Source: Candidatus Krumholzibacteriia bacterium
GTDB taxonomy: Bacteria; Krumholzibacteriota; Krumholzibacteriia; WVZY01
NCBI GenBank assembly: GCA_036478295.1
Contig: JAZGDW010000058.1
Span: forward strand, 1 to 24,512
Direction: 5' to 3'
DNA: 24,512 nt
Shown here: positions 501 through 24,480 of the stretch, one piece after another
Numbering within the stretch: the first letter of the stretch is position 1
Layout: each line of letters begins with the position of its first letter
Position numbers and translations under genes: made by a program
The notes under the pieces: model-generated
What the model saw: the letters and a program-made list of their open reading frames with translations, nothing else
What the model was told of the DNA's origin: nothing
Databases searched by the model: none

Positions 501-558
501 CAAATTTCTCCTTTCCCCGCGCCTGGGGCAGTGAGTATCCTGTGAATGAGGGATTACA

Positions 559-570
559 GAACGTACGTTC
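559..570. promoter_or_regulatory. candidate repressor operator
   Basis: Perfect 12-bp palindrome GAACGTACGTTC between a possible -10 (TATCCT 536-541) and the had RBS (GGAGGT 583-588). Confidence 0.4.
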
Positions 571-595
571 GTTCGGGTTTTGGGAGGTGAGCTCT

Positions 596-1657: not shown

Positions 1658-1728
1658 GCGGGTGGCGTTCTCTCGTTCGGGTGCAGAGGCGGGCGACAGG
1701 GAACCGGTCACAATAAGGAGACTCAAAG

Positions 1729-2805: not shown

Positions 2806-2837
2806 CCGTTATGCCGACCTTGCGGCGGCATAACGGC
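2805..2837 (+). other. stem-loop immediately after the oah stop
   Basis: GCCGTTATGCCG (2805-2816) and CGGCATAACGGC (2826-2837) form a perfect 12-bp inverted repeat with a 9-nt loop and no U-tract. Confidence 0.7.
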
Positions 2838-2988
2838 CGGCGATTAGGAGCAGACAGTGCAAGCGCTGCAGCTCAATCACCGGGATTGCTGGCCACCCGG
2901 GGCATAACGGCCGGCGATTGGAGCAGACAGCGCAAGTGCTGCAGCTCAATCACCGGGATTGCTGGCCACCCGGGGCATAACGGCCGGC
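2827..2988. repeat. tandem direct repeat, 73-74 bp unit, about 2.2 copies
   Basis: Units begin GGCATAACGGCCGGC at 2827, 2901 and 2974 (third is partial). The two full copies differ by one indel and two substitutions. Confidence 0.95.
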
Positions 2989-3037
2989 CTTGCGGCGGGC
3001 ATGGCTGCACGGCCAAACTCGAAAAAGGAGACCAAGG

Positions 3038-3820
3038 GTGGCCCACGAAGTAATCAACGTCAACTACCTGCACGACGGACAGGTGGTGGAAATCGTCCTG
3101 GGGCCGGGGCCGGGGAATATTGTCACCGCACGGCTGATTCAGGAAATATCGACCGAGATCGGGATACTGACTGACGGTTCACCTGACAACCGAAGCCGCA
3201 AGCTGATCGTTTTCACAGGTGAGGGGGAGCATTTTAGTTACGGCGCTAGTGTTGAGGAACACAAGGCCGAGAGTGTGGGAGAAATGCTCCCCCAGTTTCA
3301 CCGGTTGATCGGGGAGATTCTCGAGTGCGACATTCCGACCCTGGCGAAGGTGTCCGGGTTGTGCCTGGGGGGCGGGTTCGAGCTCGCCCTGTCCTGCGCC
3401 ATGATATTCAGTGCCGGGGATGCCAAGTTCGGAGTTCCGGAGATCCAGCTGGGGGTCTTTCCACCGGTCGCCAGTGTACTCCTGCCCCACAAGATGGCAG
3501 AGTCGGCCGCCTCGCAAATGATCCTTACCGGCGCGAAGGTCAGCGCCGGCGAGCTCCAGCGTCTGGGCGTCGTGCACGCCGCGACGGGCTCGATCGACGA
3601 TTCGGTGGAGCAGTTCATCCAGAAACAGATTCTCCCCAAGAGCGCATCGTCGCTCAGGTTTGCGTGCCGTGCGGCGCGGGCGGGCATCCGGCGGCAGTAT
3701 CGCGAAAACATAGCAGAGGTGGAGCGCCTCTACCTCGACCAGCTCATGGCCACCGCGGATGCCCGGGAGGGCATCGACGCGTTTCTCGAAAAACGCTCCC
3801 CGAAATGGACCCACAAATAG
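3038..3820 (+). CDS. dch: cyclohexa-1,5-diene-1-carbonyl-CoA hydratase (crotonase family)
   Basis: HFSYGASVEEH, CLGGGFEL and PEIQLGVFPP motifs; GTG start at 3038 with AAGGAG at 3025-3030; pathway context. Confidence 0.9.
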   Translation: MAHEVINVNYLHDGQVVEIVLGPGPGNIVTARLIQEISTEIGILTDGSPDNRSRKLIVFTGEGEHFSYGASVEEHKAESVGEMLPQFHRLIGEILECDIPTLAKVSGLCLGGGFELALSCAMIFSAGDAKFGVPEIQLGVFPPVASVLLPHKMAESAASQMILTGAKVSAGELQRLGVVHAATGSIDDSVEQFIQKQILPKSASSLRFACRAARAGIRRQYRENIAEVERLYLDQLMATADAREGIDAFLEKRSPKWTHK

Positions 3821-3831
3821 GAGGTAGTTCC

Positions 3832-4572
3832 CTGGCCGACAAGCGACATAAGCCCGATCCCATCGGTTCCTGGTCGATGACCGAAGGCCTGGACGAGATC
3901 CTGAAGAAATCGTGTCACTTGATGGCACGCCAGGGGTTTCACGGGACCAGTATGCGCGATCTCGCGCAGGCAACCGGGCGAAGCCTGTCGGGCCTGTACC
4001 ACTACTTTCGCAACAAAGAGGACCTGCTCTTTCTCATCAACTTCTACGGATTCAAGACGCTGAACGAGACGTGGGCCAGGATCGCCGATAACTTCGAACA
4101 TCCACGGGAGAAGCTGTACACGTTCGTTTATTTTCACACCGCCTATTTCATCGAGCACATGGACGAGATGCGCGTGATGACCTGGGGGACTCACGAATTG
4201 CACCTGGAGAAGGCCACGGTGATACAGAAACTCAAAGACCGGTATACCGCCGCCGCCCGTGGGATCGTCCGGGATGTATATCAAGCCGACAAGCGGATGG
4301 ACCTGGACGAACGCCGGTCATGGCGGGAGACATACCTGCTGTTCGGGATGATGAACTGGATGTTCAGCTGGTATTCGGCGAAAGACCATGGGGGCGTCAG
4401 CGATCTCGTCGGTGATATTTATCGTACGTTCGTGTCGGGCATTTCGGGTAACGGCCGTGACCAGATCGACATCGAGCGCCTGAAGAGTGTGGTCGGCAAA
4501 TCGTTTCGCGAGAACAAGGCGGCGTCGATGTGGGCGACGACCGGTGAATCGGACCACTTGGAGAAATCATGA
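3832..4572 (+). CDS. TetR/AcrR-family transcriptional regulator (PaaR/KstR2-like); start uncertain (CTG 3832 or ATG 3877)
   Basis: HTH ILKKSCHLMARQGFHGTSMRDLAQATGRSLSGLYHYFRNKEDLL; C-terminal LFGMMNWMFSWY. Its stop overlaps the bcrC start (ATGA). Confidence 0.9.
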   Translation: MADKRHKPDPIGSWSMTEGLDEILKKSCHLMARQGFHGTSMRDLAQATGRSLSGLYHYFRNKEDLLFLINFYGFKTLNETWARIADNFEHPREKLYTFVYFHTAYFIEHMDEMRVMTWGTHELHLEKATVIQKLKDRYTAAARGIVRDVYQADKRMDLDERRSWRETYLLFGMMNWMFSWYSAKDHGGVSDLVGDIYRTFVSGISGNGRDQIDIERLKSVVGKSFRENKAASMWATTGESDHLEKS

Positions 4573-5729
4573 GCGTCGGCAGCACTGTGAGCAGATGCGA
4601 GGAACTCTACAACGATCTCCATTTCTCGTACGTCAAGGAGTGGAAGAAAAAGCGCGGCGGTCGCGCCATCGGCTATATGCCCATCTACGTGCCACGCGAG
4701 ATCATCCACGCGGCGGGCATGCTGCCCGTCGGCATAATGGGCGCCGGTGACAACCTCGAAATCATTCGCGGAGACGCATACTACCAGTCGTACATCTGCC
4801 ACATTCCCCGCTCGACAATCGAGCTGGGCCTCGGGGGCCGCCTCGATTGTCTGGACGGCATGCTGTTTCCCGCCATTTGCGACGTTATCCGTAACCTCAG
4901 CGGTATGTGGCAGCTGATGTTCAAGGACAAGTATGTGAAATACATCGATTATCCCCAGAACTTCAATGCGGGCATCGGCGGCAACTTCTATGTCAACGAG
5001 TTGAATCAGCTCCGCAACGACCTCGGGGCCATGAACGGCAAGCCGATCCACAACGACAAACTCAACGAGTCGATCAAACTCTACAACAAGAACGCGAAGG
5101 CAATCGACAGACTGTACGCGCTCCGCGCCGAGGCGCCTCACCTGGTGCCGACCTACGAGCTCTATCTGCTCATGCGCGCGGGGAATATTCTGGAGGTCTC
5201 GGAGCACACCCGTATGGTCGAAGAGTACCTCTCGCAGGTGAAGAAGGAGAAACGGCATGAAATGGACAACATTCGCGTCATCGTCACCGGCGTCTTCTGC
5301 GAACAGCCGCCGCTCGGGCTGATACGAGCGCTCGAGCAGAGCGGCTGTTACATCGTGGATGACGACTGGGTGCTGGGCGCGCGCTACCTCACCGGCGGGG
5401 TGGCGATAACCGACGACCCAGTACAGGCCCTGTCCGACGGCTATTTGAACCACGGCGTCGCAACGGCTTCGCGTTACATCGACCAGGAGGAAAAAGGGCG
5501 TGATCTCATCGATCGCGTCAAGAAGCTCAACGCGGAGGGGGTCATTTTCGCGTCGCCGAGCTTCTGCGACCCGGCGCTGCTCGAGCGGCCGATGCTGCAG
5601 AGCGCGCTCACGAAGGCGAACATTCCCAACACATCATTCAAGTTTTCGGAAAACTCGGGCCAGTACCAGGTCATCAAAGAGCAGACAGGAACCTTTTCGG
5701 ACTCGATCAAACTTTGGGGGACGGCATGA
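4569..5729 (+). CDS. bcrC: benzoyl-CoA reductase subunit C (2-hydroxyacyl-CoA dehydratase-like)
   Basis: 386 aa with GDAYYQSYICHIPRSTIELG, PAICDVIRNLSGMW, GVFCEQPP, SFCDPALLERPM and EQTGTFSDSIKLW; first gene of the CBAD order. Confidence 0.93.
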   Translation: MSVGSTVSRCEELYNDLHFSYVKEWKKKRGGRAIGYMPIYVPREIIHAAGMLPVGIMGAGDNLEIIRGDAYYQSYICHIPRSTIELGLGGRLDCLDGMLFPAICDVIRNLSGMWQLMFKDKYVKYIDYPQNFNAGIGGNFYVNELNQLRNDLGAMNGKPIHNDKLNESIKLYNKNAKAIDRLYALRAEAPHLVPTYELYLLMRAGNILEVSEHTRMVEEYLSQVKKEKRHEMDNIRVIVTGVFCEQPPLGLIRALEQSGCYIVDDDWVLGARYLTGGVAITDDPVQALSDGYLNHGVATASRYIDQEEKGRDLIDRVKKLNAEGVIFASPSFCDPALLERPMLQSALTKANIPNTSFKFSENSGQYQVIKEQTGTFSDSIKLWGTA

Positions 5730-6994
5730 GCCAGAATACTACCGCTCAAAAAGAAAAGAGCATGGAGCTGCAGAAGGAAATGATCGCCGCCCATTTCAAG
5801 CGGTTGTCCAGGGTGAAGGAAACGGGCAAGAAGGTTGTCTACACGTTCGTTCCCGGCAATCTCAACGAGCTGATATGGTCGTTCGACATGCTGCCCGTTC
5901 ATCCCGAGATCAACGCCCTGCAATCGGCGATGCGCAAGAAGAGCAGCCAGTACGTGCTCGAAGCCGAGAAGCACGGCCACTCGGAGGACGTCTGCACCTA
6001 CGTCAAATGTGACATCGGCATGTTGAAGAGCGGGAATATCGGTCCCACAGGTGAGAAGCTCCCCGAACCCGACCTGCTGTTACTCAGCTATACCGGTTGC
6101 TTCACGTTCATGAAATGGTTCGAGCTGCTCAAGCAGGAATACGGCTGCCCGGTGGCGATGCTGCACGTGCCCTACCAGGGGGACGGAGAGCAAACACCGG
6201 AGATGCTCGAGTACGTGGTGAAGCAGCTCAGGGATGAGGTCATACCGCTGATGGAAAAAATCTCCGGCAACAAGTTCGACGAGGACCGCCTGCGCGGGTT
6301 TATGGCCGCGTCGGCAAGAGCCGAGGACGACCTCGTCGCCGTATGGGAGTCGGCGAAGCACCGCCCGTCGCCCATCGACGCCTATTTCGGCGGAGTGTTC
6401 TACATCGGCCCGATGTTCTCGGCGTTCCGGGGGCTGGAATCCTGCGAGGATTACTACAAGACCCTGCGCGAAGAAGTCGACAACCGGGTGGCGAAGAAGC
6501 TGGGGCCCATCACGCCCGACGGCATGATGAAGGAGGAAAAGTACCGCCTGGTGGTGGAAGGACCCCCGAACTGGACCAGCTTCCGCGACTTCTGGAAGAT
6601 GTTCTACGAGGAAGGCGCGGTCGTGGTGAGCTCTTCTTACACCAAGGTCGGCGGTATCTACGATTCCGGCTTTCGCCACGATCCTGACCGTCCGCTGGAG
6701 AGCCTCGCGGAGTATTGCTCCGGATGCTACACCAACCTCAACCTGCCGACGCGGATCGAGCTCCTGCAAAAAGCCATGGACGATTTTGAGGCGGACGGGT
6801 TCTTGATCAACTCGATCAAGAGCTGTAATTCCTTTTCGGCCGGGCAGCTGCTCATCCTGCGCGAGCTGGAGAACCGCACCGGCAAAGCGGGGGGATTCAT
6901 CGAGTCCGACCTCGTGGACCCGCGGTATTTCAGCGCGGCGAACATCAAGAACCGGCTGGAATCCTATTTCCAGATGATCGACGCCAAACGATAG
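5726..6994 (+). CDS. bcrB: benzoyl-CoA reductase subunit B
   Basis: GHSEDVCTYVKCDIG, SYTGCFTFMKWFE, EGPPNWTSF, KSCNSFSAGQ and ESDLVDPRYFS; ATG 5726 overlaps the bcrC stop (ATGA). Confidence 0.93.
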   Translation: MSQNTTAQKEKSMELQKEMIAAHFKRLSRVKETGKKVVYTFVPGNLNELIWSFDMLPVHPEINALQSAMRKKSSQYVLEAEKHGHSEDVCTYVKCDIGMLKSGNIGPTGEKLPEPDLLLLSYTGCFTFMKWFELLKQEYGCPVAMLHVPYQGDGEQTPEMLEYVVKQLRDEVIPLMEKISGNKFDEDRLRGFMAASARAEDDLVAVWESAKHRPSPIDAYFGGVFYIGPMFSAFRGLESCEDYYKTLREEVDNRVAKKLGPITPDGMMKEEKYRLVVEGPPNWTSFRDFWKMFYEEGAVVVSSSYTKVGGIYDSGFRHDPDRPLESLAEYCSGCYTNLNLPTRIELLQKAMDDFEADGFLINSIKSCNSFSAGQLLILRELENRTGKAGGFIESDLVDPRYFSAANIKNRLESYFQMIDAKR

Positions 6995-7004
6995 GAGCGA
7001 ACGG

Positions 7005-8360
7005 ATGGATTGTTACATCGGAATCGACCTTGGTTCGACCACGACGAAGGCCGTCTACATGGACACGGACGAGCGCATCCTGGGCCGCGGCATTACGAAC
7101 AGCCGGGCCAACTACGGGCTCGCCTGTGAGATCGCGAGCGACGAGGCCGCTATCAATTCCCGTTTTCACCTGCTCAGGCGCAAGATCGGCGAGAAGCACG
7201 ACTCCGGCGAGTTGGTGACCAACCTCATGGATTGGCTGGGATGCAAGTTCAAACTGGCGCAGCACCTGCAGCAGGTAGAGGCGCTGGAGAGAGTATGCGG
7301 CGAGATTGTGGGCGGCTGGACCGATGCGGAGGCGAAGAAAGCCCACATGCCGGCGCTCGCAAAGATATTCGCCGAGATGAACGACCTCGCCGCTCCGATG
7401 TTCCGGCCCGGCGTCAAGTCGCGCAGCGACTTCTTCAGGGATATCGCCTCGAGCCAGTTTCTCGACAATGCCGAGGGACTGGCCCGGAGTGACGGCGTGT
7501 CGTTCGACCGCCTGACCGGCCTTTTCGACAAGGCGATCCTCCTGGTCGAGGGCGAGAGCTTCGCGGAGCACTACGACACCTATCTCGATTTCGCGTGCCG
7601 GGAAACGCTCAAGGTCGACGGCTTCAGCGCGCTCGAAGACGAAATCAAGCGGGCGACCGAGTACGCGGCCACGGTCGAATTCAACGCCATCAATACAATC
7701 GGCACCGGTTACGGGCGCCAGACCCTCCCGTTCCCCAAGCACCAGATCCGCTCGGAGATTCTGTGCCACGGGTTGGGGGCGCACTCCATGTTCCCGCGGA
7801 CGGCAACGGTGCTCGATATCGGTGGGCAGGACACGAAGGCCATCCAGGTCGACCCCGCCGGCGTCGTGACGAACTTTCAGATGAACGACCGCTGCGCGGC
7901 CGGGTGCGGCAGATACCTTGGGTACATCGCCGACGAAATGAACATGGGCGTGCACGAGCTGGGGCCGCTGGCGATGACGGCGAAGCGCACGGTCCGCATC
8001 AACTCGACCTGCACCGTGTTCGCCGGCGCGGAGCTCCGCGAGAGGCTGGCCCTTGGCGAGAGGCGTGAGGACATTCTCTCCGGCCTGCACCGGGCCATTG
8101 TCATCCGGTCGATGTCGCTTCTGGCGAGGAGCGGCGGCGTAAAGGACGAGTTTACTTTTACCGGTGGCGTGGCCAAAAACGAGGCGGCGACCGATGCGCT
8201 GAAGAAGCTCGTGTTCGAGAACTACGGAGAGATGACGATCAACATCAGCCCGGACAGCATTTACACCGGGGCATTGGGGGCCGCGCTCTTTGCCCGCCGG
8301 GACGAGAAGGGCGATCTGGTGAACGTGGATCTGAAGAAACTGAGAAAGAGGGTACACTGA
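7005..8360 (+). CDS. bcrA: benzoyl-CoA reductase subunit A (ASKHA ATPase, [4Fe-4S] activator)
   Basis: GIDLGSTTTK, long helical insertion, GTGYGR, SEILCHG, LDIGGQDTK, MNDRCAAGCG, NSTCTVFA and TGGVAKN; AGGAG RBS at 6993-6997. Confidence 0.95.
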   Translation: MDCYIGIDLGSTTTKAVYMDTDERILGRGITNSRANYGLACEIASDEAAINSRFHLLRRKIGEKHDSGELVTNLMDWLGCKFKLAQHLQQVEALERVCGEIVGGWTDAEAKKAHMPALAKIFAEMNDLAAPMFRPGVKSRSDFFRDIASSQFLDNAEGLARSDGVSFDRLTGLFDKAILLVEGESFAEHYDTYLDFACRETLKVDGFSALEDEIKRATEYAATVEFNAINTIGTGYGRQTLPFPKHQIRSEILCHGLGAHSMFPRTATVLDIGGQDTKAIQVDPAGVVTNFQMNDRCAAGCGRYLGYIADEMNMGVHELGPLAMTAKRTVRINSTCTVFAGAELRERLALGERREDILSGLHRAIVIRSMSLLARSGGVKDEFTFTGGVAKNEAATDALKKLVFENYGEMTINISPDSIYTGALGAALFARRDEKGDLVNVDLKKLRKRVH

Positions 8361-9217
8361 TGCTATATACCTTGGGAATGGATGTCGGCTGCAGCGCGGT
8401 CAAGTCCGCCGTGATGGCGTTCGATGACCGGGGCCGCAAGGAGAAGTTGCTCGGTACCCGGTTGGACAAGATCCGCAGGCGCAACCTCAAGGATGTTATC
8501 GTGCAATCCTGTGAGCGCATCCTGGAGGAGCAGAAGTTGTCCCGAGACGACATTGACTACGTGGCCACGACCGGCGAAGGCGAACTGGTGGATTTCAAGC
8601 GAGGCCATTTTTATTCCATGACCACGCACGCGCGCGGCGCCCTCTTTCTGGACCCCGAGGCAAGGGCGGTCCTGGACGTGGGCGCGCTGCACTCGAAGGC
8701 CATCGTCATGGACGAGCGCTCCAAGGTTCTGGGCTATCGCATGACGTCGCAGTGCGCGTCGGGCACCGGCCAGTTTCTGGAGAACATCTCGCGTTATCTC
8801 GGCGTGTCCATCGACGAAGTGGGGCCACTCTCCCTCGAGGGAGACAATCCGGAGATCGTATCGGGCATTTGCGCGGTCCTCGCCGAGACGGACGTCATCA
8901 ATATGGTGAGCCGCGGGATCACGCCAGGAAACATTCTCAAGGGAATCCACTTGTCCATCGGCAAGCGGTTGATTAACCTGCTGCGTATGGTGAAGGCCGA
9001 GGGCCCGATGCTCGTGACCGGCGGCCTTTCCAGGGACAGCGGACTGCTCGCCGTTCTCGAAGAGCTGGCGCAGAAGACGTCGCTGGACGTCGAGGTTCGC
9101 AGCCACGAGCTATCCGTCTTCGCGGGGGCCATCGGTGCGGCGGTGTGGGGTGCATTCCGCCACGTAAAACTGAAGGGCGCTCACAAGTCGTCGTCGCAGG
9201 CGATCGGCACCGCCTGA
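8360..9217 (+). CDS. bcrD: benzoyl-CoA reductase subunit D (ASKHA ATPase)
   Basis: GMDVG, YVATTGEGE, HFYSMTTHARGA, MTSQCASGTGQFLEN and SGICAVLAETDVINMVSRG; TGATG overlap with bcrA. Confidence 0.95.
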   Translation: MLYTLGMDVGCSAVKSAVMAFDDRGRKEKLLGTRLDKIRRRNLKDVIVQSCERILEEQKLSRDDIDYVATTGEGELVDFKRGHFYSMTTHARGALFLDPEARAVLDVGALHSKAIVMDERSKVLGYRMTSQCASGTGQFLENISRYLGVSIDEVGPLSLEGDNPEIVSGICAVLAETDVINMVSRGITPGNILKGIHLSIGKRLINLLRMVKAEGPMLVTGGLSRDSGLLAVLEELAQKTSLDVEVRSHELSVFAGAIGAAVWGAFRHVKLKGAHKSSSQAIGTA

Positions 9218-12477: not shown

Positions 12478-15138
12478 TCAGCGCAGGAGAACGATCTTGC
12501 GGCTGAAATGCTGTGTCGCCGTCTTCATGCGGTAATAGTAAACCCCCGAGGCAACGCGCTGGCCGACCTGGTTGGTTCCATCCCAGGTGACCGTCTGAAA
12601 CCCTGGTGGCCTTTCCTCATTGATAAGCGTCTTCACCAGACGACCGGCGACGTCGTAGATGCGGATCGTCATCGGTTCCCGTTTTCCGAGCGCATAGCGG
12701 ATGGTCGCAGATGTGCGGAACGGGTTGGGCCAGTTCTGGAGCAGCGCGGTCTTTATCGTTGGAATATCACCGATCCCAGTCGGATCCACATGGAGGCTGG
12801 TTGTGTCGGTGACCATTACAACCGGCGCGGCCCGTCCCTGTGCCACCCATGCATCGTACAACTGTTGTCCCAGTGTGTTGGTCGTGTTTTCGTCGCGGAG
12901 GAACTCGATGTATCCCTTCGATGTAGTTTGGTAATACAGTGTCACCTCTGCGAACACCGCGTCGAGGGGCAGAACGTATTCGGTTTCGTCCCAGTACTGG
13001 CCGTCCGGATACGTGTGCGCGACCGGCGGCGACTGAATTGCTTCAAAGGCCGCAAAGGTGTACCCGCGCGGCGGAATCCGGTTATCCGAATATATGGTGT
13101 CGTTCAAAACGAAATGGAACGACGGGGCCGCGGGCAGACCGACGACCGGCGCGAGCGATGTCGAAACGCCGGGCTTGACCTGATAGATCTTCACGTCGGC
13201 GTCGTGCGTAAGAACGCCGGTCGCGGGATCGTATGCGCCTGATTCGTAAACCAGGCTGTCGTCCGCATCGAACGCCTTGACACCCAGCCAGATCCTCCGG
13301 CCTTCCGGGTAGCCGGACGGTAGCTTGTGGCCTGTTTCGTTGGTGACCGTCACCGTGACTGTCGGATTGGAAAGTTGCTGGCCGGGGGTAAGTGCCATCG
13401 TCGCCGCCAGCCCCAGCATCTGGATCGCCCGCTGCTTTCCATCCTGCAGGCGCAGCGAATCCACTTCACTGCCCCAGAAGGACGGCAGAATATCCGGCAC
13501 GAAGTGATTGGCTCCCATCAGGTCGTGCAGCGGCAGATCGGGCCGCGTCGGAACGCCGGGCTCGTCGCAGCCCACTCCGCTAACGTCGCGCATGTGGCAA
13601 TCCTGGCAGGTCGACACGATGCCGTCGGCCTTATTGCCCGCGAACTGCGGTGCGAACACGCCCGACGCCGCGTACTCACTCTCCGACCACTCGCTGAACG
13701 TACGCTCCACAGGGAACATATTCCGAAGGTCTCCGTCGGGATGGGGTGCGTCGAATGCGTTAGGCACGTATTCACCCGGACTGCCGCCGGCGCTGAACAC
13801 GGGGTTGCTGACGTCATGGCAGGTCCCGCAGAGAGCGGCGCGGTGAAAGGGCGATTCGAGAAACGAGTGGCTCGCGACCGCATCGCCAAACGGCCCGCGC
13901 ATGATCGGGTCCGGGTCGACCACATACTGCCCGTTCGCCGGGGCGAGGGGCACGACATCCAGCGAATCGAGCACCGCCGTGTCCTGCGGTGGGCTTATGC
14001 CGGGTTTATAGATCGGGTCCACCTGGCGGTGACAGAAATCGCATTGGACACCCGCGCGGTCCTTTGCCGTTATGAGAGCACCGCTCGTATCGACCGAACG
14101 TCCTTCCAGCCACCCGCCCGGCGTGTGACAACGGATGCAAAGATCGCCCACTGACGGCGCATCCTGCTCGGCCACCACCACGGTGGCCAGAAACAGCGGA
14201 TCCCTCTGGGCTTGGGCCATCATACTGCCCTTCCACACGTACCAGGGCTCCACCGCGGGATCGTATTCGCCGTGGCAGGTGACGCAGTTGACATCGGGGT
14301 CCCTGAACACACCTGCGGAGAATGGCTGCGAGCCGGGAAGATCGATATCACGCATCGTTGTGGGGACAGTTCCACCGGGTACGCGGGTGATCGTGAAGGA
14401 GGCGTCGCTCAGATCCTCACCGTAGTTGCCCGCGTTGTCCCGTGCCACCACACGGATGGCGCTCAGTCCGCCGGGGCGGTTGGGCACGAACCAGTCGAAG
14501 GTTCCGTCGTTGGGTTCCTGGGCGGCGACCTGCTTGAAGGTCCCGCCAAAATCGTCGGACAAGTAGATATCCACATGTGAAATGCCGCTGGCGTCGGTCG
14601 CCGACCAGGTCACGAGATCGAATGTGCCTGCCTGGGCGTTCTCTCCGCCGTTCGGTGACAGAACGGTCACGACCGGAGGTGTGGTGTCGCTGCTGCCGCT
14701 GGGCGTCAGGTACGGCAGTATGTCGGCCGGATCGACGTTAGCGACGGAGCCGACGTTGCCCGATTCGAGTCCGGGGAAGGTCGGGGTATTGGTAAAATTG
14801 ATGACGTCTGTTATCTCGACATTATTGATAAAACCATCGTTGTCGGCATCGAGGCCATCGAGCGAGAGGATGGCAGCCTCGGTGGTGGGGAAGCTGCCGA
14901 TGGCAACCTCCACCGACAATCCGTAAGGATTCCGCGGCCCGCCGCCGTCGAAATCAAAATGGCACACACCGCAGTGCCCCGCGTTGCTGGGCAGGTCGTC
15001 GAGCCGGCTTGCGGTGGCGCCGGGATACACATTGAAAAACGCCTTGCGGATCGGTCTTCGGGCCTGGGCCGGTGACACCGGAAGCGTGAGAAGGGTCGCG
15101 ATGACGAGGATGGATACTCTGAAAAAGGCAGTGGGCAT
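12478..15138 (-). CDS. secreted multiheme (6 CxxCH) cytochrome c with an Ig-like domain and a C-terminal FlgD-Ig/T9SS-type sorting domain
   Basis: Start reassigned to ATG 15138 (GAGGTG RBS; signal peptide MPTAFFRVSILVIATLLTLPVSPAQA), giving 886 aa. Heme motifs CGVCH, CVTCH, CIRCH, CDFCH, CGTCH, CQDCH; GHKLPSG; tail LLQNWPNPF...IYDVAGRLV...WDG...ASGVYYY...KIVLLR. Confidence 0.9.
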   Translation of the reverse strand: MPTAFFRVSILVIATLLTLPVSPAQARRPIRKAFFNVYPGATASRLDDLPSNAGHCGVCHFDFDGGGPRNPYGLSVEVAIGSFPTTEAAILSLDGLDADNDGFINNVEITDVINFTNTPTFPGLESGNVGSVANVDPADILPYLTPSGSSDTTPPVVTVLSPNGGENAQAGTFDLVTWSATDASGISHVDIYLSDDFGGTFKQVAAQEPNDGTFDWFVPNRPGGLSAIRVVARDNAGNYGEDLSDASFTITRVPGGTVPTTMRDIDLPGSQPFSAGVFRDPDVNCVTCHGEYDPAVEPWYVWKGSMMAQAQRDPLFLATVVVAEQDAPSVGDLCIRCHTPGGWLEGRSVDTSGALITAKDRAGVQCDFCHRQVDPIYKPGISPPQDTAVLDSLDVVPLAPANGQYVVDPDPIMRGPFGDAVASHSFLESPFHRAALCGTCHDVSNPVFSAGGSPGEYVPNAFDAPHPDGDLRNMFPVERTFSEWSESEYAASGVFAPQFAGNKADGIVSTCQDCHMRDVSGVGCDEPGVPTRPDLPLHDLMGANHFVPDILPSFWGSEVDSLRLQDGKQRAIQMLGLAATMALTPGQQLSNPTVTVTVTNETGHKLPSGYPEGRRIWLGVKAFDADDSLVYESGAYDPATGVLTHDADVKIYQVKPGVSTSLAPVVGLPAAPSFHFVLNDTIYSDNRIPPRGYTFAAFEAIQSPPVAHTYPDGQYWDETEYVLPLDAVFAEVTLYYQTTSKGYIEFLRDENTTNTLGQQLYDAWVAQGRAAPVVMVTDTTSLHVDPTGIGDIPTIKTALLQNWPNPFRTSATIRYALGKREPMTIRIYDVAGRLVKTLINEERPPGFQTVTWDGTNQVGQRVASGVYYYRMKTATQHFSRKIVLLR

Positions 15139-15186
15139 GGCGCACCTCGTTCGGAGAAAGGGGAAGGAAAAGTGACAAATATCAAC

Positions 15187-15206: not shown

Positions 15207-15400
15207 CTTTCTGCAGTGAGTATAGACCTGATTGTTGCGTTTCGCCATTTCGTTTTTGCCCCGCCGATCGATCCTCTAACGGAATAGTGAAACCATCGCC
15301 TGAAATTGGCTTGCGCCGGGCTGTGCCGCGTGCCACGATGCACGGTGCCCGCTTGGGGTCGCGGGTCCTTATTCGCGATCGTGTGTCCACTGCAACCCTC

Positions 15401-16579
15401 ATGAAAAACAGACTGTCGGTGATTCAATCCGTGCCGGTCTGGCTACCGCAGACCGGCACGTGGCTCCACGACCAGGTTCGGTTCCTGCCCGACGATATCG
15501 AGAGCCACGTCGTTTGCGAAACCACTCAACGCCTCGACCAGTTTCCCTTCCACAATATCGACTGCCTTCGCGATCAGCCGCGCCTGAAATTCGTCTGGGA
15601 CCTGGGTATGCGGAAGATCGGCGCCCGCAAGCACCTGCATTTCCACGTGGCGTGCGCCCGCAAGCACGGCGCCCGCCTGATGCACTCGCATTTCGGCAAC
15701 ACCGCCTGGCAGGATCTCGGCGCCGCCAGGGCTGCGTCGCTGCACCACGTCGTCACGTTCTACGGGCGGGACGTGAACCACCTGCCCACCGTCGATCCAC
15801 GCTGGCGCGAGCGCTACGGCGAGCTGTTCCGGCGGGTCGACTGCGTGCTGTGTGAAGGCGAGTTCATGGCGGCGAGCATCGTGCGGCTCGGCTGCCCCGA
15901 GAACAAAGTGCGTGTCCACCACCTGGGGGTCGATGTCGAGGCCATCACCTTCGTGCCCAGGGAATGGGCGCCCGGCCAGCCGCTGCGCGTGTTCATGGCA
16001 TCTGTTTTTCGCGAAAAGAAAGGAATCCCCTACGGACTGGAGGCATTGGGCCGGCTGCAGCACGACGTTCCGCTGGAAATCACCATCATTGGTGACGCGC
16101 ACGGCACGGCCGGCACCCGGGAAGAGAAGAAGAAAATCCTCGCCACCATCGAAAAGCACGGCCTGGGTCCGCGAACCCGCCGGCTCGGCATCACGCCGTA
16201 CGAGGTCATGCGCCGGGAAGCGCTCGATCACCACGTTTTCATGTCGCCGAGTGTGACGGCCGCCGACGGCGACACCGAGGGTGGGGTTCCGGTCTCGATT
16301 ATCGAGATGTGCGCGTCGGGCATGCCGGTGGTGAGCACCAGGCACTGTGACATCCCCGGTGTTATTCTCGACGGCAAGACCGGCCTGCTCGCCGACGAGC
16401 GCGACGTCGACGGGCTGGTGCGCGGCCTGCGCTGGCTGGTGGAACATCCCGGCGAGTGGAGCGGTATGCTCGCTGCCTCCCGCCGGCGCATCGAGCAGGA
16501 GTTCGATGCTCGTACGCAGGGGACGCGGCTCGGTGCCATATACGCGGAGATCGCGGGCGGGGGCGCCGTCGCCGCCTGA
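15401..16579 (+). CDS. GT4 (GT-B) glycosyltransferase, WcaL-like
   Basis: HSHFG, VVTFYGRDV, REKKGIPY, PSVTAADGDTEGGVPVSIIE and VVSTRHCDIP motifs. ATG 15401 preferred because the upstream extension runs through the divergent promoter region. Confidence 0.88.
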   Translation: MKNRLSVIQSVPVWLPQTGTWLHDQVRFLPDDIESHVVCETTQRLDQFPFHNIDCLRDQPRLKFVWDLGMRKIGARKHLHFHVACARKHGARLMHSHFGNTAWQDLGAARAASLHHVVTFYGRDVNHLPTVDPRWRERYGELFRRVDCVLCEGEFMAASIVRLGCPENKVRVHHLGVDVEAITFVPREWAPGQPLRVFMASVFREKKGIPYGLEALGRLQHDVPLEITIIGDAHGTAGTREEKKKILATIEKHGLGPRTRRLGITPYEVMRREALDHHVFMSPSVTAADGDTEGGVPVSIIEMCASGMPVVSTRHCDIPGVILDGKTGLLADERDVDGLVRGLRWLVEHPGEWSGMLAASRRRIEQEFDARTQGTRLGAIYAEIAGGGAVAA

Positions 16580-16696
16580 AGCCGCTGCGGACGCTCGCCG
16601 ATAGCGCGAAAAGGCCTGTACCATCAACGGTTGCGCGCCCCGGTACTTCCCGCTAATATCAGGGGGCGCACCCCCATTTGAAAGGCGACCCGATCG

Positions 16697-17866
16697 ATGT
16701 CCGACCCCGTACGTCCCGATGACCGCTTCCTGATTTTCGGCGCTCCCGCCATCGAGGAGGACGAGGTGCAGGAAGTCGTCGCCAGCATCCGTAGCGGCTG
16801 GCTCGGCACCGGTCCCAAGGTTGCCCGCTTCGTCGAGGACTTCAAGAGCTACATCGGCGCAGAGCACGCCGCCGCCGTCAACTCCGGCACCGCGGCCATG
16901 CATCTGGCCATGATCGCCGCGCAGCTCGATCGCGGTGACGAAGTCATCACGACGGCGATGACGTTCTGCTCCACGGTCAACGCGATCATCCATGCCGGCG
17001 CGACGCCCGTACTCGCCGACTGTGATCGCGGGACGATGAACATCGATCCCGCGCGCATCGAAGAAAAGATCACCCCCCGCACGCGCGCTGTCATGCCGGT
17101 GCACTTCGCGGGCCGCGCGTGCGACATGGACGCCATCATCGACATCGCCGCGCGTCACAACCTCAAGGTGATCGGCGACTGCGCCCACGCCATCGAGACG
17201 GAGTACAAGGGACGCAAGGTGGGGACCATCGGTGAATTTGCCTGCTACAGTTTTTACGTAACGAAGAACGTCATTACCGGCGAAGGAGGCATGGTGCTCA
17301 CCCGCCGGGAGGAGGACGCGGCCCGTATCCGCACGCTCGCGCTGCACGGGATGAGCAAGGACGCGTGGAAACGCTTCAGCGACGAGGGCTACGTCCATTA
17401 CTACGTCTACGAGGCGGGCTTCAAGTACAACCTGATGGATATCCAGGCGGCGATCGGCATACACCATCTCAAACGGGTGGAGAAATACTGGAAGCGCCGG
17501 GAGGAGATATGGAAGCGTTACGACAAGGCATTCGCGGACATGCCGATCGGCACCCCACTGCCAGCCGAACCGGACACGCGCCACGCCCATCATCTCTACA
17601 CGATCATGGTGGACAAGAAGCGGTCGGGAATCACTCGCGACGAGTTCTTGAACGCGATCCAGGCACATAATATCGGAGTCGGTGTTCACTATTTGAGCAT
17701 CCCCGAGCATCCTTACTATAAGAAAACCTTCGGCTGGAAGCCCGCGGAGTACCCGAACGCCTCGCGGGTCGGGCGCGAAACGGTTAGCCTGCCCCTGTCG
17801 GCCAAACTGACCGACGGGGACGTCGACGACGTGGTCGAGGCGGTGGGGAGGGTTCTTCACCGGTGA
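16697..17866 (+). CDS. DegT/DnrJ/EryC1/StrS-family PLP-dependent NDP-sugar aminotransferase
   Basis: SGWLGTGP, NSGTAAMHLA, PVHFAG, DCAHA, SFYVTKNVITGEGG (PLP lysine), GFKYNL and SLPL motifs. Confidence 0.93.
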   Translation: MSDPVRPDDRFLIFGAPAIEEDEVQEVVASIRSGWLGTGPKVARFVEDFKSYIGAEHAAAVNSGTAAMHLAMIAAQLDRGDEVITTAMTFCSTVNAIIHAGATPVLADCDRGTMNIDPARIEEKITPRTRAVMPVHFAGRACDMDAIIDIAARHNLKVIGDCAHAIETEYKGRKVGTIGEFACYSFYVTKNVITGEGGMVLTRREEDAARIRTLALHGMSKDAWKRFSDEGYVHYYVYEAGFKYNLMDIQAAIGIHHLKRVEKYWKRREEIWKRYDKAFADMPIGTPLPAEPDTRHAHHLYTIMVDKKRSGITRDEFLNAIQAHNIGVGVHYLSIPEHPYYKKTFGWKPAEYPNASRVGRETVSLPLSAKLTDGDVDDVVEAVGRVLHR

Positions 17867-19107
17867 CCTGGTTAGAAGGCGCCGCCGGAATCCCCCTCCG
17901 GCAGCTCACAAACTTGAGGGAATTGCTCGCCGGCCGCTCGGTCACGACTCCGGCCATGGGCTCCGTAACTCTCGACGAGGACGACGTGGCGCTCGCCCGC
18001 GCTTGGCTCAAGCGGCGCCAGGGCTGGTCCGACCCCGAACCGGTGCGCCGTTACGAAGAGGCTTTTGCAGCCTGGAACGGGTCGAGCCATGCGTTCGCGT
18101 TCATGGGTGGGCGTGTGGCCCTGAGCGCCTGCATCCATGCGCTGGGTCTCAAGCCGGGGGATGAAGTCATCATACCCGGCTACACCTGCGTCGTGGTACC
18201 CAATGCCTTCAAGTACGCCCGGGTAAACGTCGTCTACGCGGATATCGAGCTGCAATCCTTTGGTCTCGATGCCGGCTCGGTGCGCTCCAAGATTACCGAA
18301 CGCACGCGGGCCGTCATGGTCCAGCATCTTTACGGTCTCGTTTCGCGCGACTACGACAAGGTTCTCGCCCTCGCCGAGGAGCACGACCTGCATGTGATAG
18401 AGGACTGTTGCCATGCGACCGGAGCGGAGCACCACGGCGTAAAGGTCGGCAATCGCGGTCACGTGGCGTTCTATTCGAGCGAGCAATCCAAGATATTCAC
18501 AACCATCCAGGGGGGAATGGCGACGACCAACGACGCGGAGATCGCGGACCGGCTGAGTCGTTACCAGGCGGACGCGCCCTATCCCGACGAGGCGTGGATC
18601 GACCGCCAGCTGCACAACGTCGTTCTGAACTACTACCGGTTCAAACATCCCCAGCGCTGGTGGCGCGGCGACCTGGCCGTTTTGCGCTACGGTCACAAGC
18701 GCCTGGTTTCCACCACCCAGGGCGAGTGCAGCGGCGTGCGGCCGCAGCACTACGGCCGCAGGATGCCGGCGCCCATCGCGGTCATCGGCAGCAACCAGCT
18801 GAAAAAGATCGATAGGTACAACGAGCGGCGGCGCGAAACGGCGCTGTACTGGGACGACTGGTGCCTGAGCGCCGGTTACGGCCGGCCGCTGGTGTTGGCA
18901 GAATCACTCCCCGTGTTTCTGCGCTACCCGGTACTTGTCGAGCCCGAAAAAAAGCGCAAACCCTCGTGGGCCAAAAAGGAGCTTGGTGTCACGCTCGGGG
19001 TCTGGTTTATTAGTCACGTGCACCCGGCGCCCCGAAGCATCGACGGCTGCCCGCATGCCGACGAGGCGGTCAGGCGCTGCGTAAACCTGCCCTGTCTACT
19101 GGATTAA
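17863..19107 (+). CDS. divergent DegT/DnrJ/EryC1/StrS-family PLP-dependent enzyme
   Basis: GRVAL, PGDEVIIPGYTCVVV, QHLYG, IEDCCHATG, YSSEQSKIFTTIQGG and VNLP motifs; GTGA overlap with the preceding gene. Confidence 0.85.
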   Translation: MTWLEGAAGIPLRQLTNLRELLAGRSVTTPAMGSVTLDEDDVALARAWLKRRQGWSDPEPVRRYEEAFAAWNGSSHAFAFMGGRVALSACIHALGLKPGDEVIIPGYTCVVVPNAFKYARVNVVYADIELQSFGLDAGSVRSKITERTRAVMVQHLYGLVSRDYDKVLALAEEHDLHVIEDCCHATGAEHHGVKVGNRGHVAFYSSEQSKIFTTIQGGMATTNDAEIADRLSRYQADAPYPDEAWIDRQLHNVVLNYYRFKHPQRWWRGDLAVLRYGHKRLVSTTQGECSGVRPQHYGRRMPAPIAVIGSNQLKKIDRYNERRRETALYWDDWCLSAGYGRPLVLAESLPVFLRYPVLVEPEKKRKPSWAKKELGVTLGVWFISHVHPAPRSIDGCPHADEAVRRCVNLPCLLD

Positions 19108-19109
19108 TA

Positions 19110-19682
19110 ATGAACGTCTTTCGATTGTTTTCCGAAATGTGGAAGTTCGGGCGCGAAGCGTTCGCCGGTGTGATCCGCGGCAACCCGTCGATGATCGCAG
19201 CGCGGCTCCGGCGCCGCATGTTTCGCACGGTCTGCACTATCGATACCCACGTGTTTATCACCCACCGTCGCAATTTCGCGGCGGGTGAGGGCAGTGCACT
19301 CTACCACGGCTGCTACATCCTGAACGCCGAGGGCAAATTCAGCCTGGGTGCCAAGTCGCACCTCGGCGCCTACTGCTATGTTAATGCTTGCCACGGAAAC
19401 ATCACCATCGGGGACGACGTGGCTGTCGGCCCCGGTACGAAGTTCATCGCCTATTCCAATCATTATGAAGCGGGCAAGAAGGTCACGGACATCCGCCTGA
19501 CCCGGGACATCGTCGTGGGGAACAACGTTTTTATCGGCGCCAACTGCAGCATCCTTCCCGGGACGGTGATCCACGATAATGTCGTGGTCGCCGCCGGGTC
19601 GGTGGTCAAGGGCGAACTCGAAGGCAACGCCATCCACGGTGGCGTGCCCTGCCGCAAGTTGAAAGACGGATGGTACGAGTAA
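19110..19682 (+). CDS. hexapeptide-repeat (left-handed beta-helix) acyltransferase
   Basis: ITIGDDVAVGPG, NH, IVVGNNVFIGANCSILPGTVIHDNVVVAAGSVV and GGVPCR motifs. Confidence 0.9.
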   Translation: MNVFRLFSEMWKFGREAFAGVIRGNPSMIAARLRRRMFRTVCTIDTHVFITHRRNFAAGEGSALYHGCYILNAEGKFSLGAKSHLGAYCYVNACHGNITIGDDVAVGPGTKFIAYSNHYEAGKKVTDIRLTRDIVVGNNVFIGANCSILPGTVIHDNVVVAAGSVVKGELEGNAIHGGVPCRKLKDGWYE

Positions 19683-21270: not shown

Positions 21271-21288
21271 GCTTTGCAGGACACCGAC

Positions 21289-24200
21289 ATGACGCATCTC
21301 ACCACCGTTTTTGCCCGCTCCTGGACCTTCCTCAACGTCTTGCTGGTTGCCACGCTGATCGCCGTACAGGGCGCTTCACCCCTCTACGCGGGAACCGTGC
21401 GCCGGTATGTCGAGGATTTTGCGACCCAGCAGTTCAGGGATGCCGCCACCACCACCGCCGATTGGAACAGCGCGGCCGGAGAGATCCAGCTCTTTCCGTT
21501 TGTGCCATCCATCGTGGCCGGCTTCGGCCCACCGGGCGCGGGGTTTACACGCGATCTGGCAATAGACGGCAATATTCTCTGCATGGTCGACGGCGCCGAA
21601 GGGCTCCGGGTGTTCGACGTGACCGACCCGCTGAATCCGGTGCTGGCCGGCACGTGGGTCTCGCCTCCCGACGGTATAGAAGCGTTCGCGTCGGACGTCG
21701 TCATCGCGGGTGATATGGCGTTGGTCGCGGACGGGTTGTCCGGTCTCCAGATAATCGACATCAGCGACACGGCGAACCCGTTTCGGGTCGGCCATTATCA
21801 GACAACGGGCTTCGCTCGTGGCGTCACCGTGGCCGGCGACTTCGCTTACGTGGCGCAGAGTGCCGTGCCACCGGCGACGGATTCAGGGCTGTTCGTGGTT
21901 GACATCAGCAATCCTGCGCTGCCGGCGTTGGCGGGAAGTCTGCTGCTGCCGGGACTCCCGATCGGCGTGTCCGTTGATGGAGACCTGGCGTACGTCGCCG
22001 GCGGCACCGGCGGGCTCTTTACGGTGACCGTTAGCAACCCGGCGAGTCCCGCGCTTCTCGGCAACCTGCCCACACCGACCCTGTCACGAAGTATCGTGGT
22101 CGCGGGTAAGCACGCCTACATGGCGACGGCGCAAAGCGGGCTCTACGTCGTAAACGTCACCAATCCCCTGACCCCGACACTGGCGAAGGTCTATGACACG
22201 CCGGACATTTCATTCGGTGTCGCGCTCGCGGGCGATGTGCTCTACGTTGCCGACGGCGCCACGGGCCTGTTGGAATTCAATATCGAGGACGCCGTCAACC
22301 CCGTTCTCGCGCATACGATCGATACAGCTGACCTGGCGCTCGGAGTGGCCCTCGCCGGTGACTATGCGTACGTGTCAGACGGCGCCGCGGGACTGAAGGT
22401 AATCAAGACGAGCGAGGCGGTGCGGCCGATTCCCGTGGGAGCAACACAGTCGGCGATGAACGCGGGCGGTGTCGTCATCCGCGGCAACCACGCCCTGGTG
22501 GCGGACGGGAGCTTCGGCCTGCGTTCCGTGGACATTACCGATCCCGCCCTGCCGGTCGTGGTCGGTGGCGCGGCGTCCGTGCTGTCGCTCGCCGGGGATG
22601 TTGCCCTCTCCGGCGATCACGTGTACGCGTCCACAGGTGGCAGCGGGCAGCTGGAGATTTTTTTGATCGGCGACGCGGCCAACCCCATCCACCTGTTCAA
22701 CTTTGACACGGGGAGTGAAACGGGAAGCATGGTGATCCGAGGAGACCGCGGCTACCTGGCGAATGGCATCGCCGGTTTTACCGTCCTGGATCTCGCCAAT
22801 CCTCCCGTGCCGGCCATCGTGGGAAATGCGTCGACGCCCAATTTTGCGGTGGCGGCCGATGCCGCCGGTGACATGGCGTTTGTCACCGTTATCGCAACGG
22901 GCCTTAGGACAATCGACATCAGCAATCCCGCCCTGCCCGTCACCGCCGGCGGTTATACCGACGGCGCCGGCGGCAACGACATCGAGGTGCACGGCGACGA
23001 GGCGTACATCGCCTCCAGCGACGGTCTGCGGGTTTTCGATATCACCGACCCGACGGCGCCCGCGCCGCTCGCGCACCTGCCCACGACGACGGGTGTGGGT
23101 CGGGGAGTGGCGGTAGCGGGGGACTATGCGGTTGTTACGACCGGCTCGAATCCGCCGGGCGCGGTCCTGGTCATCGATGTCCGTGATCCGGCGAACCCCG
23201 TGGAAGTCGGGAGCTACCCGACCACCAACGCGCTTGACGTCGCTCTTTCCGGTGACCTTGCCTACGTCGCCGACGGAACCTCAGGGCTTCGTGTCTTCGA
23301 GGTCTTCGAACGCGCCTTCGGCCTGGCGAATAACATCGCGCAGTCAACGAACGTGCATGCCGCGGGTGATGACATCATCCGCGTGCGGCTGGCGGCCACG
23401 CACAATGATTCCATTCGTTGGGAGGTGTCTGCCGACGGCGGCGGCGCCTGGCGGGATGTGGTCCCCAACGGCAGCTGGGTCAAACCGCCGCAGCCGGGGT
23501 CTGACCTACGCTGGCGTTCGAGCCACGTGTACGCCGTCGCCCGCACCAATCCGGCGGCGAGCACACTGGAGCTGGAATGGCTTTACCCGTTTGCCGCCAT
23601 CGACTCTATCGTCGACGTGCCGAATGATACCGGCGGCTGGGTCAACGTGCACTTTTCTCGCTCGGGACACGACTTCGCCGACACAACGCTCATCGTCGAT
23701 TACGCCGTGCGGCGACAGGTGGAGGGAGCACCCAACGATTGGGAAATCGTGGGAACCGTCACCGCCCAGCGGCAGGACGAATATATTGCCACGGTCCCGA
23801 CCGTCCCCGATCCGGCGGACACGGTCTTCTCGGTCTATTCGATCCGTGCCCGCACGTCGGATCCACTGGCTTTTTTTGACAGCCCGCCGGACAGCGGCTT
23901 TTCGGTGGATAACACCGTCGCGGTTCTTATCGCGGATTTCAACGCCGCGTATGTCGCAAACGCCGTTCGTCTCCGGTGGCGTGTCGCCCACGCCAACGGG
24001 CTGCAAGGTTTCCATGTCTACCGCTCGCTGGAGAGGGAGCGGAATTATCACCGCGTCAACGGCGCCATGCTGCCCGCCTCGACCGCCGGTGTCTACACCG
24101 ATACAGCAATCGAGCCCGGCGCGAGCTACTGGTATCGGCTTGGCGCGGTCGACCGCGACGGTGAGTTCCTGTCACCTCCCGTTTCGGTGACGATTCCACG

Positions 24201-24480
24201 GGGCGTGTTTCGCCTCTTTCAGAACCATCCCAACCCGTTCAACCCGTCGACCACCATCTCCTATGACGTGCCGCTGCGGACCCGGGTGACACTCCGTATC
24301 TTCGATGTCAGCGGCGGGCTCATTCGCACCCTGGTCAACGGGGCACAACCCGCCGGGCGCAGGTCCGTGACCTGGGATGGACGCGATAATTCCGGCCGGC
24401 GGGTGGCGTCGGGAATCTATTTCTACCGCCTGCACGCCAACGGGTTTAGCGGGACGCGCAAGATGGTGCTGATCGAGTGA
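21289..24480 (+). CDS. secreted LVIVD-repeat (beta-propeller) protein with an Fn3/Ig-like region and a C-terminal FlgD-Ig/T9SS-type sorting domain
   Basis: Hydrophobic signal peptide ending PLYA; 14 repeats of about 42 aa (V-x-V-x-G-D-x-A-Y-V-A-D-G-x-x-G-L-x-V-x-D-I-S-N-P-x-x-P); tail LFQNHPNPFNPSTTISY...WDGRDNSGRRVASGIYFY...RKMVLIE; ATG 21289 after AGGA. Confidence 0.9.
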   Translation: MTHLTTVFARSWTFLNVLLVATLIAVQGASPLYAGTVRRYVEDFATQQFRDAATTTADWNSAAGEIQLFPFVPSIVAGFGPPGAGFTRDLAIDGNILCMVDGAEGLRVFDVTDPLNPVLAGTWVSPPDGIEAFASDVVIAGDMALVADGLSGLQIIDISDTANPFRVGHYQTTGFARGVTVAGDFAYVAQSAVPPATDSGLFVVDISNPALPALAGSLLLPGLPIGVSVDGDLAYVAGGTGGLFTVTVSNPASPALLGNLPTPTLSRSIVVAGKHAYMATAQSGLYVVNVTNPLTPTLAKVYDTPDISFGVALAGDVLYVADGATGLLEFNIEDAVNPVLAHTIDTADLALGVALAGDYAYVSDGAAGLKVIKTSEAVRPIPVGATQSAMNAGGVVIRGNHALVADGSFGLRSVDITDPALPVVVGGAASVLSLAGDVALSGDHVYASTGGSGQLEIFLIGDAANPIHLFNFDTGSETGSMVIRGDRGYLANGIAGFTVLDLANPPVPAIVGNASTPNFAVAADAAGDMAFVTVIATGLRTIDISNPALPVTAGGYTDGAGGNDIEVHGDEAYIASSDGLRVFDITDPTAPAPLAHLPTTTGVGRGVAVAGDYAVVTTGSNPPGAVLVIDVRDPANPVEVGSYPTTNALDVALSGDLAYVADGTSGLRVFEVFERAFGLANNIAQSTNVHAAGDDIIRVRLAATHNDSIRWEVSADGGGAWRDVVPNGSWVKPPQPGSDLRWRSSHVYAVARTNPAASTLELEWLYPFAAIDSIVDVPNDTGGWVNVHFSRSGHDFADTTLIVDYAVRRQVEGAPNDWEIVGTVTAQRQDEYIATVPTVPDPADTVFSVYSIRARTSDPLAFFDSPPDSGFSVDNTVAVLIADFNAAYVANAVRLRWRVAHANGLQGFHVYRSLERERNYHRVNGAMLPASTAGVYTDTAIEPGASYWYRLGAVDRDGEFLSPPVSVTIPRGVFRLFQNHPNPFNPSTTISYDVPLRTRVTLRIFDVSGGLIRTLVNGAQPAGRRSVTWDGRDNSGRRVASGIYFYRLHANGFSGTRKMVLIE

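Follow-up and report, generated by a model that had tools for sequence, protein, structure and literature searches.

A six-heme c-type cytochrome with a predicted PHC core and a T9SS-type sorting tail in a Krumholzibacteriia bacterium, a candidate exported redox enzyme

Pentaheme cytochromes of the PHC family include c552, Geobacter ExtKL, Gsu2801 and proteins of cable bacteria (PMC11976967). Hemes I, III, IV and V of the family overlay the archaeal nanowire AvECN, and c552 is assigned no clear function (PMC11976967); some cable-bacteria members are fused to a truncated haemoglobin, with O2 reduction proposed (PMC11976967; 10.64898/2026.01.20.700514). MccSep, the same protein as ExtKL, reduces polysulfide in the periplasm; its heme 2 has His/Cys ligation, its immunoglobulin (Ig)-like stem holds a catalytic selenocysteine, and an electron path from heme 1 to hemes 3, 4 and 2 has been proposed for it (10.1101/2025.11.18.688581). 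Here we describe a six-heme c-type cytochrome of 886 residues, encoded in a 24,512-nucleotide stretch from a Candidatus Krumholzibacteriia bacterium (assembly GCA_036478295.1, contig JAZGDW010000058.1, positions 1 to 24,512; the window hereafter), in which a predicted PHC core is joined to a C-terminal tail of the kind used for sorting in the T9SS (type IX secretion system). It belongs to a real, widespread and uncharacterised cytochrome family. Export of the protein is likely; the fuller reading, of an extracellular redox enzyme matured by the cytochrome c maturation (Ccm) system, exported by T9SS, trimmed by PorU and with a predicted open core heme 2, we consider a nearly even call that falls slightly short of probable.

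The CxxCH motifs start at residues 56, 285, 334, 366, 437 and 511 in a 1+5 layout, and C524 is the sole Cys outside them. In the predicted structure (pLDDT 90.3, pTM 0.86 for the whole cytochrome), residues 274–782 match Thermochromatium c552 (5ZE8) with Z 22.5, rmsd 2.9, 338 aligned residues and 22% identity (Foldseek E 5.7e-13); the next row of the fold search stands at Z 12.0, and a profile comparison of the core with c552 gives E 1.4e-11. The modelled core has the fold of PHC pentaheme cytochromes, in which an Ig-like domain comes after the five CxxCH hemes. The scores for PF22113 (28.4 vs 30) and NF040886 (29.4 vs 250) stay under the cut-offs, and identity as MccSep was rejected on that last score, on the missing heme-2 Cys and on Tyr610 in place of the selenocysteine. 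MccSep and AvECN are not among the rows of the whole-protein fold searches, which is no evidence of difference. No MccSep-type gene was matched in the host genome at 1e-20, while 8 of the 151 phylum genomes gave matches; selenocysteine-type MccSep genes with an in-frame TGA were seen at loci L093–L099 of one family of the host phylum. Two distant relatives of the core (E 6.7e-22 and 2.7e-11) lie on host contig C246.

The layout given by the original prediction is borne out: a signal peptide without lipobox, a monoheme domain, an Ig-like spacer, a five-heme core, GHKLPSG (residues 603–609) and the tail, arranged as in Table 1. The signal peptide is basic and hydrophobic; sequence and conservation place its end at AQA|R (26/27), and as there is no Cys it lacks a lipobox; position 26 is Ala, Gly or Ser in 114 of 117 aligned homologues. 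The spacer (151–255 in this comparison) resembles FnIII-like modules in the predicted structure (Z 12.0, rmsd 2.0, 93 aligned). The monoheme domain has Temptin_C look-alikes in the Atlas (0.91–0.92, TM 0.57) and itself lacks a Pfam match; the homologue P0282 passes Temptin_C PF24784 (27.4 vs cut-off 27). No solved look-alike of this domain was found, the best being Z 2.9 with the domain folded alone at pLDDT 67. Its conserved D97-x-D99-x-D101...E108 is a possible Ca2+ loop.

With 34.8 for TIGR04183 (cut-off 23) and 44.6 for FlgD_ig (cut-off 27), the final 93 residues exceed both models, in agreement with the tail type first proposed, and fall just under Pfam Por_Secre_tail PF18962 (26.3 vs 27). 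The modelled tail is Ig-like and matches the C-terminal domain (CTD) of PorU (6za2; Z 10.0, rmsd 3.0, 91 aligned). Its near-terminal Lys, K881, is kept in 110 of 117 homologues, and the near-terminal Lys of such tails contacts PorV in solved translocons (PMC10994853, section 7). Many further proteins of the host genome with this tail have a linker like PTGIGDIP ahead of it. A flagellar hook cap FlgD proper was rejected for the tail protein (NF005176, 33.6 bits over 56 residues vs cut-off 230). The 1068-residue LVIVD-repeat protein encoded at 21274–24480 (+) of the window bears the same type of tail, as had been claimed. At another locus (L083:8705–10123, +), a gene directly 3' of a hexaheme homologue encodes a di-heme cytochrome c peroxidase (CCP_MauG) with an FlgD_ig-type tail, by its sequence a second heme protein with the same tag.

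A protein search gave 2583 matches among 8000 scored candidates; the best 120 of these share 59–96% identity, nearly all across almost the full length, and 116 of the 120 were aligned with the query. As six CxxCH motifs are retained in 115 of these 117 rows and the tail in all 117 (by a profile built from the host genome's own tails), the architecture is not due to chance. Mean identity in the alignment is 68–70% in the heme domain and stem and 46% in the tail. A search of named genomes gave 399 matching stretches; among the best 80, 70 carry the tail, three are cut by a contig end and seven end otherwise. The matching genomes are labelled mostly Krumholzibacteriia, Eisenbacteria, Latescibacterota and Zixibacteria. 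From the host phylum 151 genomes were sampled for the core, which was detected in 85. Atlas clusters with the PHC-core fold come mostly from Krumholzibacteriota, Binatota, Planctomycetota, Chloroflexota, Myxococcota and Pseudomonadota. Cluster look-ups for the family returned Calditrichia as the only organism label and no cultured strain; relatives stand in public databases under the name 'T9SS type A sorting domain-containing protein'.

The host genome (90.9% complete, 5.0% contaminated) encodes both the translocon and the maturation genes that the original prediction called for. SprA scores 516.9 (summed in one frame; cut-off 200) and PorU 428 (cut-off 420), with a C-terminal piece of PorU on a separate contig immediately before a PorV-family gene; this gene is the best PorV candidate, passing the PorV/PorQ family model (227.6 vs 90) and failing the strict PorV model (140.3 vs 250), and six PorV-family barrels in all are over cut-off. 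Since SprA, PorU and PorV-family genes pass, the objection that the genome has no translocon falls away. CcmA, B, E, F and H and a CcmC-like gene lie on host contig C135, and heme attachment before export is compatible with the route because T9SS cargo folds in the periplasm before export (PMC5445135). There are 89 tail-bearing open reading frames (ORFs) in the genome (88 rows end at most 15 residues from the C-terminus), and the six-heme cytochrome is the only one with any CxxCH. On contigs C190, C203, C265 and C139, PorV-family matches adjoin ORFs whose tails are atypical, which looks, from sequence, like a pairing of shuttle and cargo. Across the phylum, 150 of 151 genomes gave a SprA match, which was over cut-off in 147.

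Ligands were assigned by motif alignment against five MccSep-type genes from relatives, and conservation was read from 93 diverse cores (the query and 92 of 150 representatives, picked for near-complete cores). The stem aligns with MccSep homologues at an hhalign probability of 98.9, Y610 falling on the selenocysteine and N679 on the MccSep Lys. M307 aligns, by a weak local match, with the MccSep His that follows W-x-x-S; among the 93 cores this column is filled by Met 88 times and by His four times, which marks a ligand position. H424 (91/93), H538 (93/93) and H604 (93/93) correspond by motif position, in our mapping, to the other conserved His of MccSep, giving four predicted distal ligands with M307. 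Where MccSep has its heme-2 Cys, the family of the cytochrome has P-[VIL]-E-R-T-[YF]-S-E-W and no Cys (E478-R479-T480 in the query); none occurs between C440 and C511 of the query, nor among the residues listed for the V477 and E478 columns of the 93 cores. C524 was rejected as a MccSep-like heme ligand, being Cys in only 49/93 and located after heme 5. The pocket columns are Tyr 74, Phe 10 and His 5 at Y610, and Glu 74, Gln 13 and Asp 4 at E478, with H675 and R479 each kept in 84. The conservation of Tyr, Glu and Arg around heme 2 favours an open heme, which probably lies beside a conserved Tyr/His/Glu/Arg pocket, and open substrate-binding hemes are described in other multiheme enzymes (10.1101/2025.11.18.688581). 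Because heme 2 is probably open beside these residues, a surface redox enzyme is favoured over a plain wire. Such a protein would be an active-site variant of the PHC fold, with a His/Met chain heme and a Tyr/His/Glu/Arg pocket, and is directly expressible and assayable.

The ends of the core vary widely. By rough rules, tails were classified in the 128 of 150 representatives whose core reaches its end: 25 are CTDs, 23 dockerin-like, one IPTL, at least nine none and 54 other, with six myxosortase-like, six Chloroflexi-type YLP, three FYR-type and one IFADGFE, the last four labels being patterns of our own that no model confirms. Curated models in 57 scanned homologues put nine over the cut-off for TIGR04183 and one each for IPTL_CTERM and dockerin_GC, and Dockerin_1 is present in 5 of 44 scanned. 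On the core tree, where some tail labels were set by eye and 26 rows are unlabelled, the CTD label changes eight times (at least three forced by strong branches) and the dockerin label six times. That the CTD-bearing cores form a single clade is rejected (p-AU 2.2e-44 and 4.7e-76) in a subset of 42 rows that was selected after the core tree. As read from these sequences, the C-terminal end of the core has been swapped repeatedly. Dockerin-like-tailed homologues at three loci (L057, L082 and L090) are in SprA-containing genomes, and the SprA translocon may have in such tails a second signal for sorting. Among 15 homologues picked for long N-terminal extensions, four carry a sugar-dehydrogenase (GSDH) propeller and one a cupredoxin before the core; because these occupy the slot elsewhere, the N-terminal slot is suggested to hold an electron-input module. 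Fusion partners among homologues are GSDH, malectin, CBM96, PKD and fn3.

In the mechanism that we propose, the protein would pass through Sec and then receive its six hemes in the periplasm from Ccm; the tail of the folded cytochrome would be recognised and drawn through SprA/PorV, and PorU would cleave near T787/G788, with the ~81 kDa (apo) protein released or anchored. The monoheme module would take up electrons, which would run from heme 1 to 3, 4 and 2, after the MccSep proposal, one chain heme being predicted His/Met (M307). At heme 2, which is without MccSep's Cys ligand, a substrate would bind directly in a pocket of Y610, H675, E478 and R479. The protein would work as a terminal reductase on or outside the cell surface, with an acceptor that does not have to be taken up; by family ties sulfur or polysulfide would come first, then metal oxides or humic quinones, the substrate being the weakest step. 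The candidate conduit on contig C197, described below, could supply its electrons. The original prediction had left electron transfer and redox catalysis side by side; catalysis fits better, given the MccSep-related PHC fold and the conserved heme-2 pocket, with electron transfer the weaker option. Neither the PHC fold nor the exchange of tails between phyla figured in the original prediction.

Several points weigh against this enzyme reading. GldK, GldL, GldM and GldN were not found in the host genome, and among phylum genomes GldM was over cut-off in none of 61 and GldL in none of 31, in searches where no control genome reached the cut-offs, so that absence is not shown; motor energy is necessary for the release of T9SS substrates (PMC10994853). 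The claim of surface delivery by a T9SS-like route has real support from the SprA, PorU, PorV-family and Ccm genes, with the GldKLMN motor not found. SprA accompanies CTD-tailed copies in 5 of 5 genomes and copies with other tails in 4 of 5; its presence does not discriminate between tail types. At least nine of the 128 classified homologues are tail-less, and the PHC proteins that have been solved or studied, MccSep among them, are periplasmic (10.1101/2025.11.18.688581). The ligand assignments derive from aligned motifs and not from coordinates, confident alignment to MccSep is confined to the stem, and H675 as a sixth ligand could close heme 2. There is no conserved partner gene, and the barrel of the C197 conduit, the only MtrB_PioB match of the host genome, scores 16 against a cut-off of 23. 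With SprA near-universal in the phylum and neither GldL nor GldM over cut-off in the genomes searched, the T9SS-like system of the phylum may use an unknown motor.

A motor that was not found, the periplasmic MccSep, the tail-less homologues and a tail that scores higher on FlgD_ig than on Pfam Por_Secre_tail would all fit a periplasmic PHC enzyme, with a tail that is not for export or only a tether because the T9SS-like parts of this lineage would lack the motor. We think this unlikely, since SprA is kept in 150/151 phylum genomes, the host genome holds PorU, six barrels of the PorV family and 89 ORFs with the tail, all 117 close homologues have the tail and 110 of them K881, and other lineages place other surface-type tags at the same position. 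The same export could instead deliver a non-catalytic surface relay, capacitor or filament, in which H675 (conserved in 84/93) would complete a bis-His heme 2 and the partners would be minerals, electrodes or cells. The AvECN overlay of PHC hemes I, III, IV and V (PMC11976967) and the decaheme, barrel and hexaheme lipoprotein cluster on C197 speak for it. It would have ~127 residues per heme, a branch heme 2 with surrounding Tyr, Glu and Arg that a wire does not need, and bulky, varied terminal domains that would be expected to hinder polymerisation, and we rate it as rather unlikely.

His/Met heme ligation should raise the potential of a heme, and the predicted ligand M307 thereby lends something to a different role, that of an extracellular oxidative or detoxifying heme enzyme (for peroxide, O2, NO, sulfide or polymer oxidation) drawing electrons from its own N-terminal module and not respiratory. 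The GSDH, malectin, CBM96, PKD and fn3 fusions, the identically tagged di-heme peroxidase at L083 and the haemoglobin-fused cable-bacteria PHCs point the same way; the cytochrome itself has no peroxidase or oxidase family match and its window carries an anaerobic benzoyl-CoA reductase pathway, and this role appears improbable.

More broadly, the large unnamed PHC branch could be a general surface redox module set on lineage-specific sorting tags, and in candidate phyla of the Fibrobacterota-Chlorobiota-Bacteroidota (FCB) group a T9SS without the known motor would export a folded holo-multiheme form of it, a route of extracellular respiration or catalysis; we put this forward tentatively, as possible and somewhat doubtful. 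If true, the terminal cytochrome of uncultured sediment and sludge bacteria needs no lipid anchor, type II secretion system or linked porin. Screens for extracellular electron transfer target porin-cytochrome clusters and named outer-membrane cytochromes, and a stand-alone T9SS-tagged cytochrome, whose core is in over half of the sampled phylum genomes, would be missed by them. If the protein is exported, the T9SS cargo range is widened to covalent multiheme proteins, and a SprA/PorV/PorU system can work without the motor that is known.

Table 1. Positions in the window of the cytochrome gene, its ribosome-binding site and its domains
Feature	Position	Strand	Basis or remark
Six-heme c-type cytochrome gene, 886 aa (P0001)	12478..15138	-	Single open frame; six CxxCH
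Likely ribosome-binding site GAGGT, 5 nt upstream of ATG	15144..15148	-	Sequence
Predicted Sec/signal peptidase I (SPase I) signal peptide, aa 1-26, no lipobox	15061..15138	-	Sequence; helix 2-24 in model; position 26 conservation
N-terminal monoheme domain, aa 27-148, temptin-C-like, likely electron-input module	14695..15060	-	HCxxCH 55-60
Ig/FnIII-like spacer, aa 150-254	14377..14691	-	Big_7 22.4 vs cut-off 24.1; Z 12.0 to 3pdd
Pentaheme domain, aa 258-578	13405..14367	-	CxxCH 285, 334, 366, 437, 511; predicted ligands M307, H424, H538
Ig-like stem of PHC fold, aa 579-785	12784..13404	-	H604 predicted heme ligand; Y610 at the selenocysteine position of MccSep; H675 in neighbouring hairpin
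Linker PTGIGDIP, aa 786-793, where a sortase may cleave	12760..12783	-	T787 in 94/117; cleavage inferred
T9SS type A-like C-terminal sorting domain, aa 794-886, with K881	12478..12759	-	TIGR04183 over cut-off; PorU CTD fold match

The codon-position GC of the cytochrome gene resembles that of its neighbours; no Rfam match was found near it, and no promoter or terminator signal there rose above shuffled sequences. A look-up of RNA data sets gave none with the gene. No conserved neighbour gene was found, no neighbour cluster occurring in more than 9 of 80 loci plus the window, many loci being short; two larger clusters are alternative reading frames of the cytochrome gene itself. As the original prediction stated, there is no porin gene among the ORFs of the window, and no other multiheme cytochrome was found in it. 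An anaerobic aromatic degradation cluster occupies 542–9217 (+), in which benzoyl-CoA reductase C, B and D pass their NCBIfam cut-offs and A is just under (565.9 vs 578), had and oah are over cut-off and a dch-like hydratase is under. Divergent from the cytochrome gene, 15287–19682 (+) encodes a glycosyltransferase, two DegT aminotransferases and a hexapeptide acetyltransferase; these are not conserved neighbours, and that they make a surface glycan anchor is a guess. Elsewhere in the host genome, contig C197 (18511–22247) encodes in tandem a DmsE-like decaheme protein (under cut-off), a 597-residue probable beta-barrel and a hexaheme lipoprotein, a candidate divergent porin-cytochrome conduit, and contig C170 (L103) carries 19-, 9-, 6- and 4-heme proteins clustered with cytochrome b and NrfD-like genes.

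The PHC fold and the T9SS tail are each known, and their union was not found in the searchable literature. The word 'cytochrome' does not occur in the T9SS reviews PMC10202324 and PMC5445135, no cytochrome was found as T9SS cargo in the literature searched (with subscription papers largely outside it and supplements not covered), and T9SS is not mentioned in the accessible parts of metagenome papers on related groups. The cytochrome is like T9SS type A cargo (with CTDs of the PorU, RgpB and RemZ type) in its signal peptide, ~90-residue Ig-like CTD and terminal Lys, and in the SprA, PorV and PorU encoded by its host; it differs in that the passenger is a covalent multiheme cytochrome, the host lies outside Bacteroidota and motor genes were not found. 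Conduit cytochromes of the MtrC/OmcA type have a lipoprotein signal and a linked porin gene. With these and with the nanowires OmcS, OmcZ and AvECN the cytochrome shares being a multiheme c-type protein predicted to face outward, whereas it has no lipobox or linked porin, unlike MtrC/OmcA, and carries another export signal; for AvECN, the heme packing of PHC proteins is reported to overlap (PMC11976967). With c552 of Thermochromatium tepidum (5ZE8) it shares the pentaheme domain and Ig-like stem, but is ~140 residues larger, has Met for His at 307 and adds the monoheme domain, FnIII spacer and T9SS tail. MccSep/ExtKL of Geobacter sulfurreducens (PDB 9WT8) likewise has five hemes and an Ig-like stem, with a His320/selenocysteine loop that aligns with H604/Y610; the cytochrome lacks the heme-2 Cys, has Tyr replacing the selenocysteine and Met replacing His at one ligand, and bears a T9SS-type tail, whereas MccSep forms a tetramer in the periplasm and has no sorting tail.

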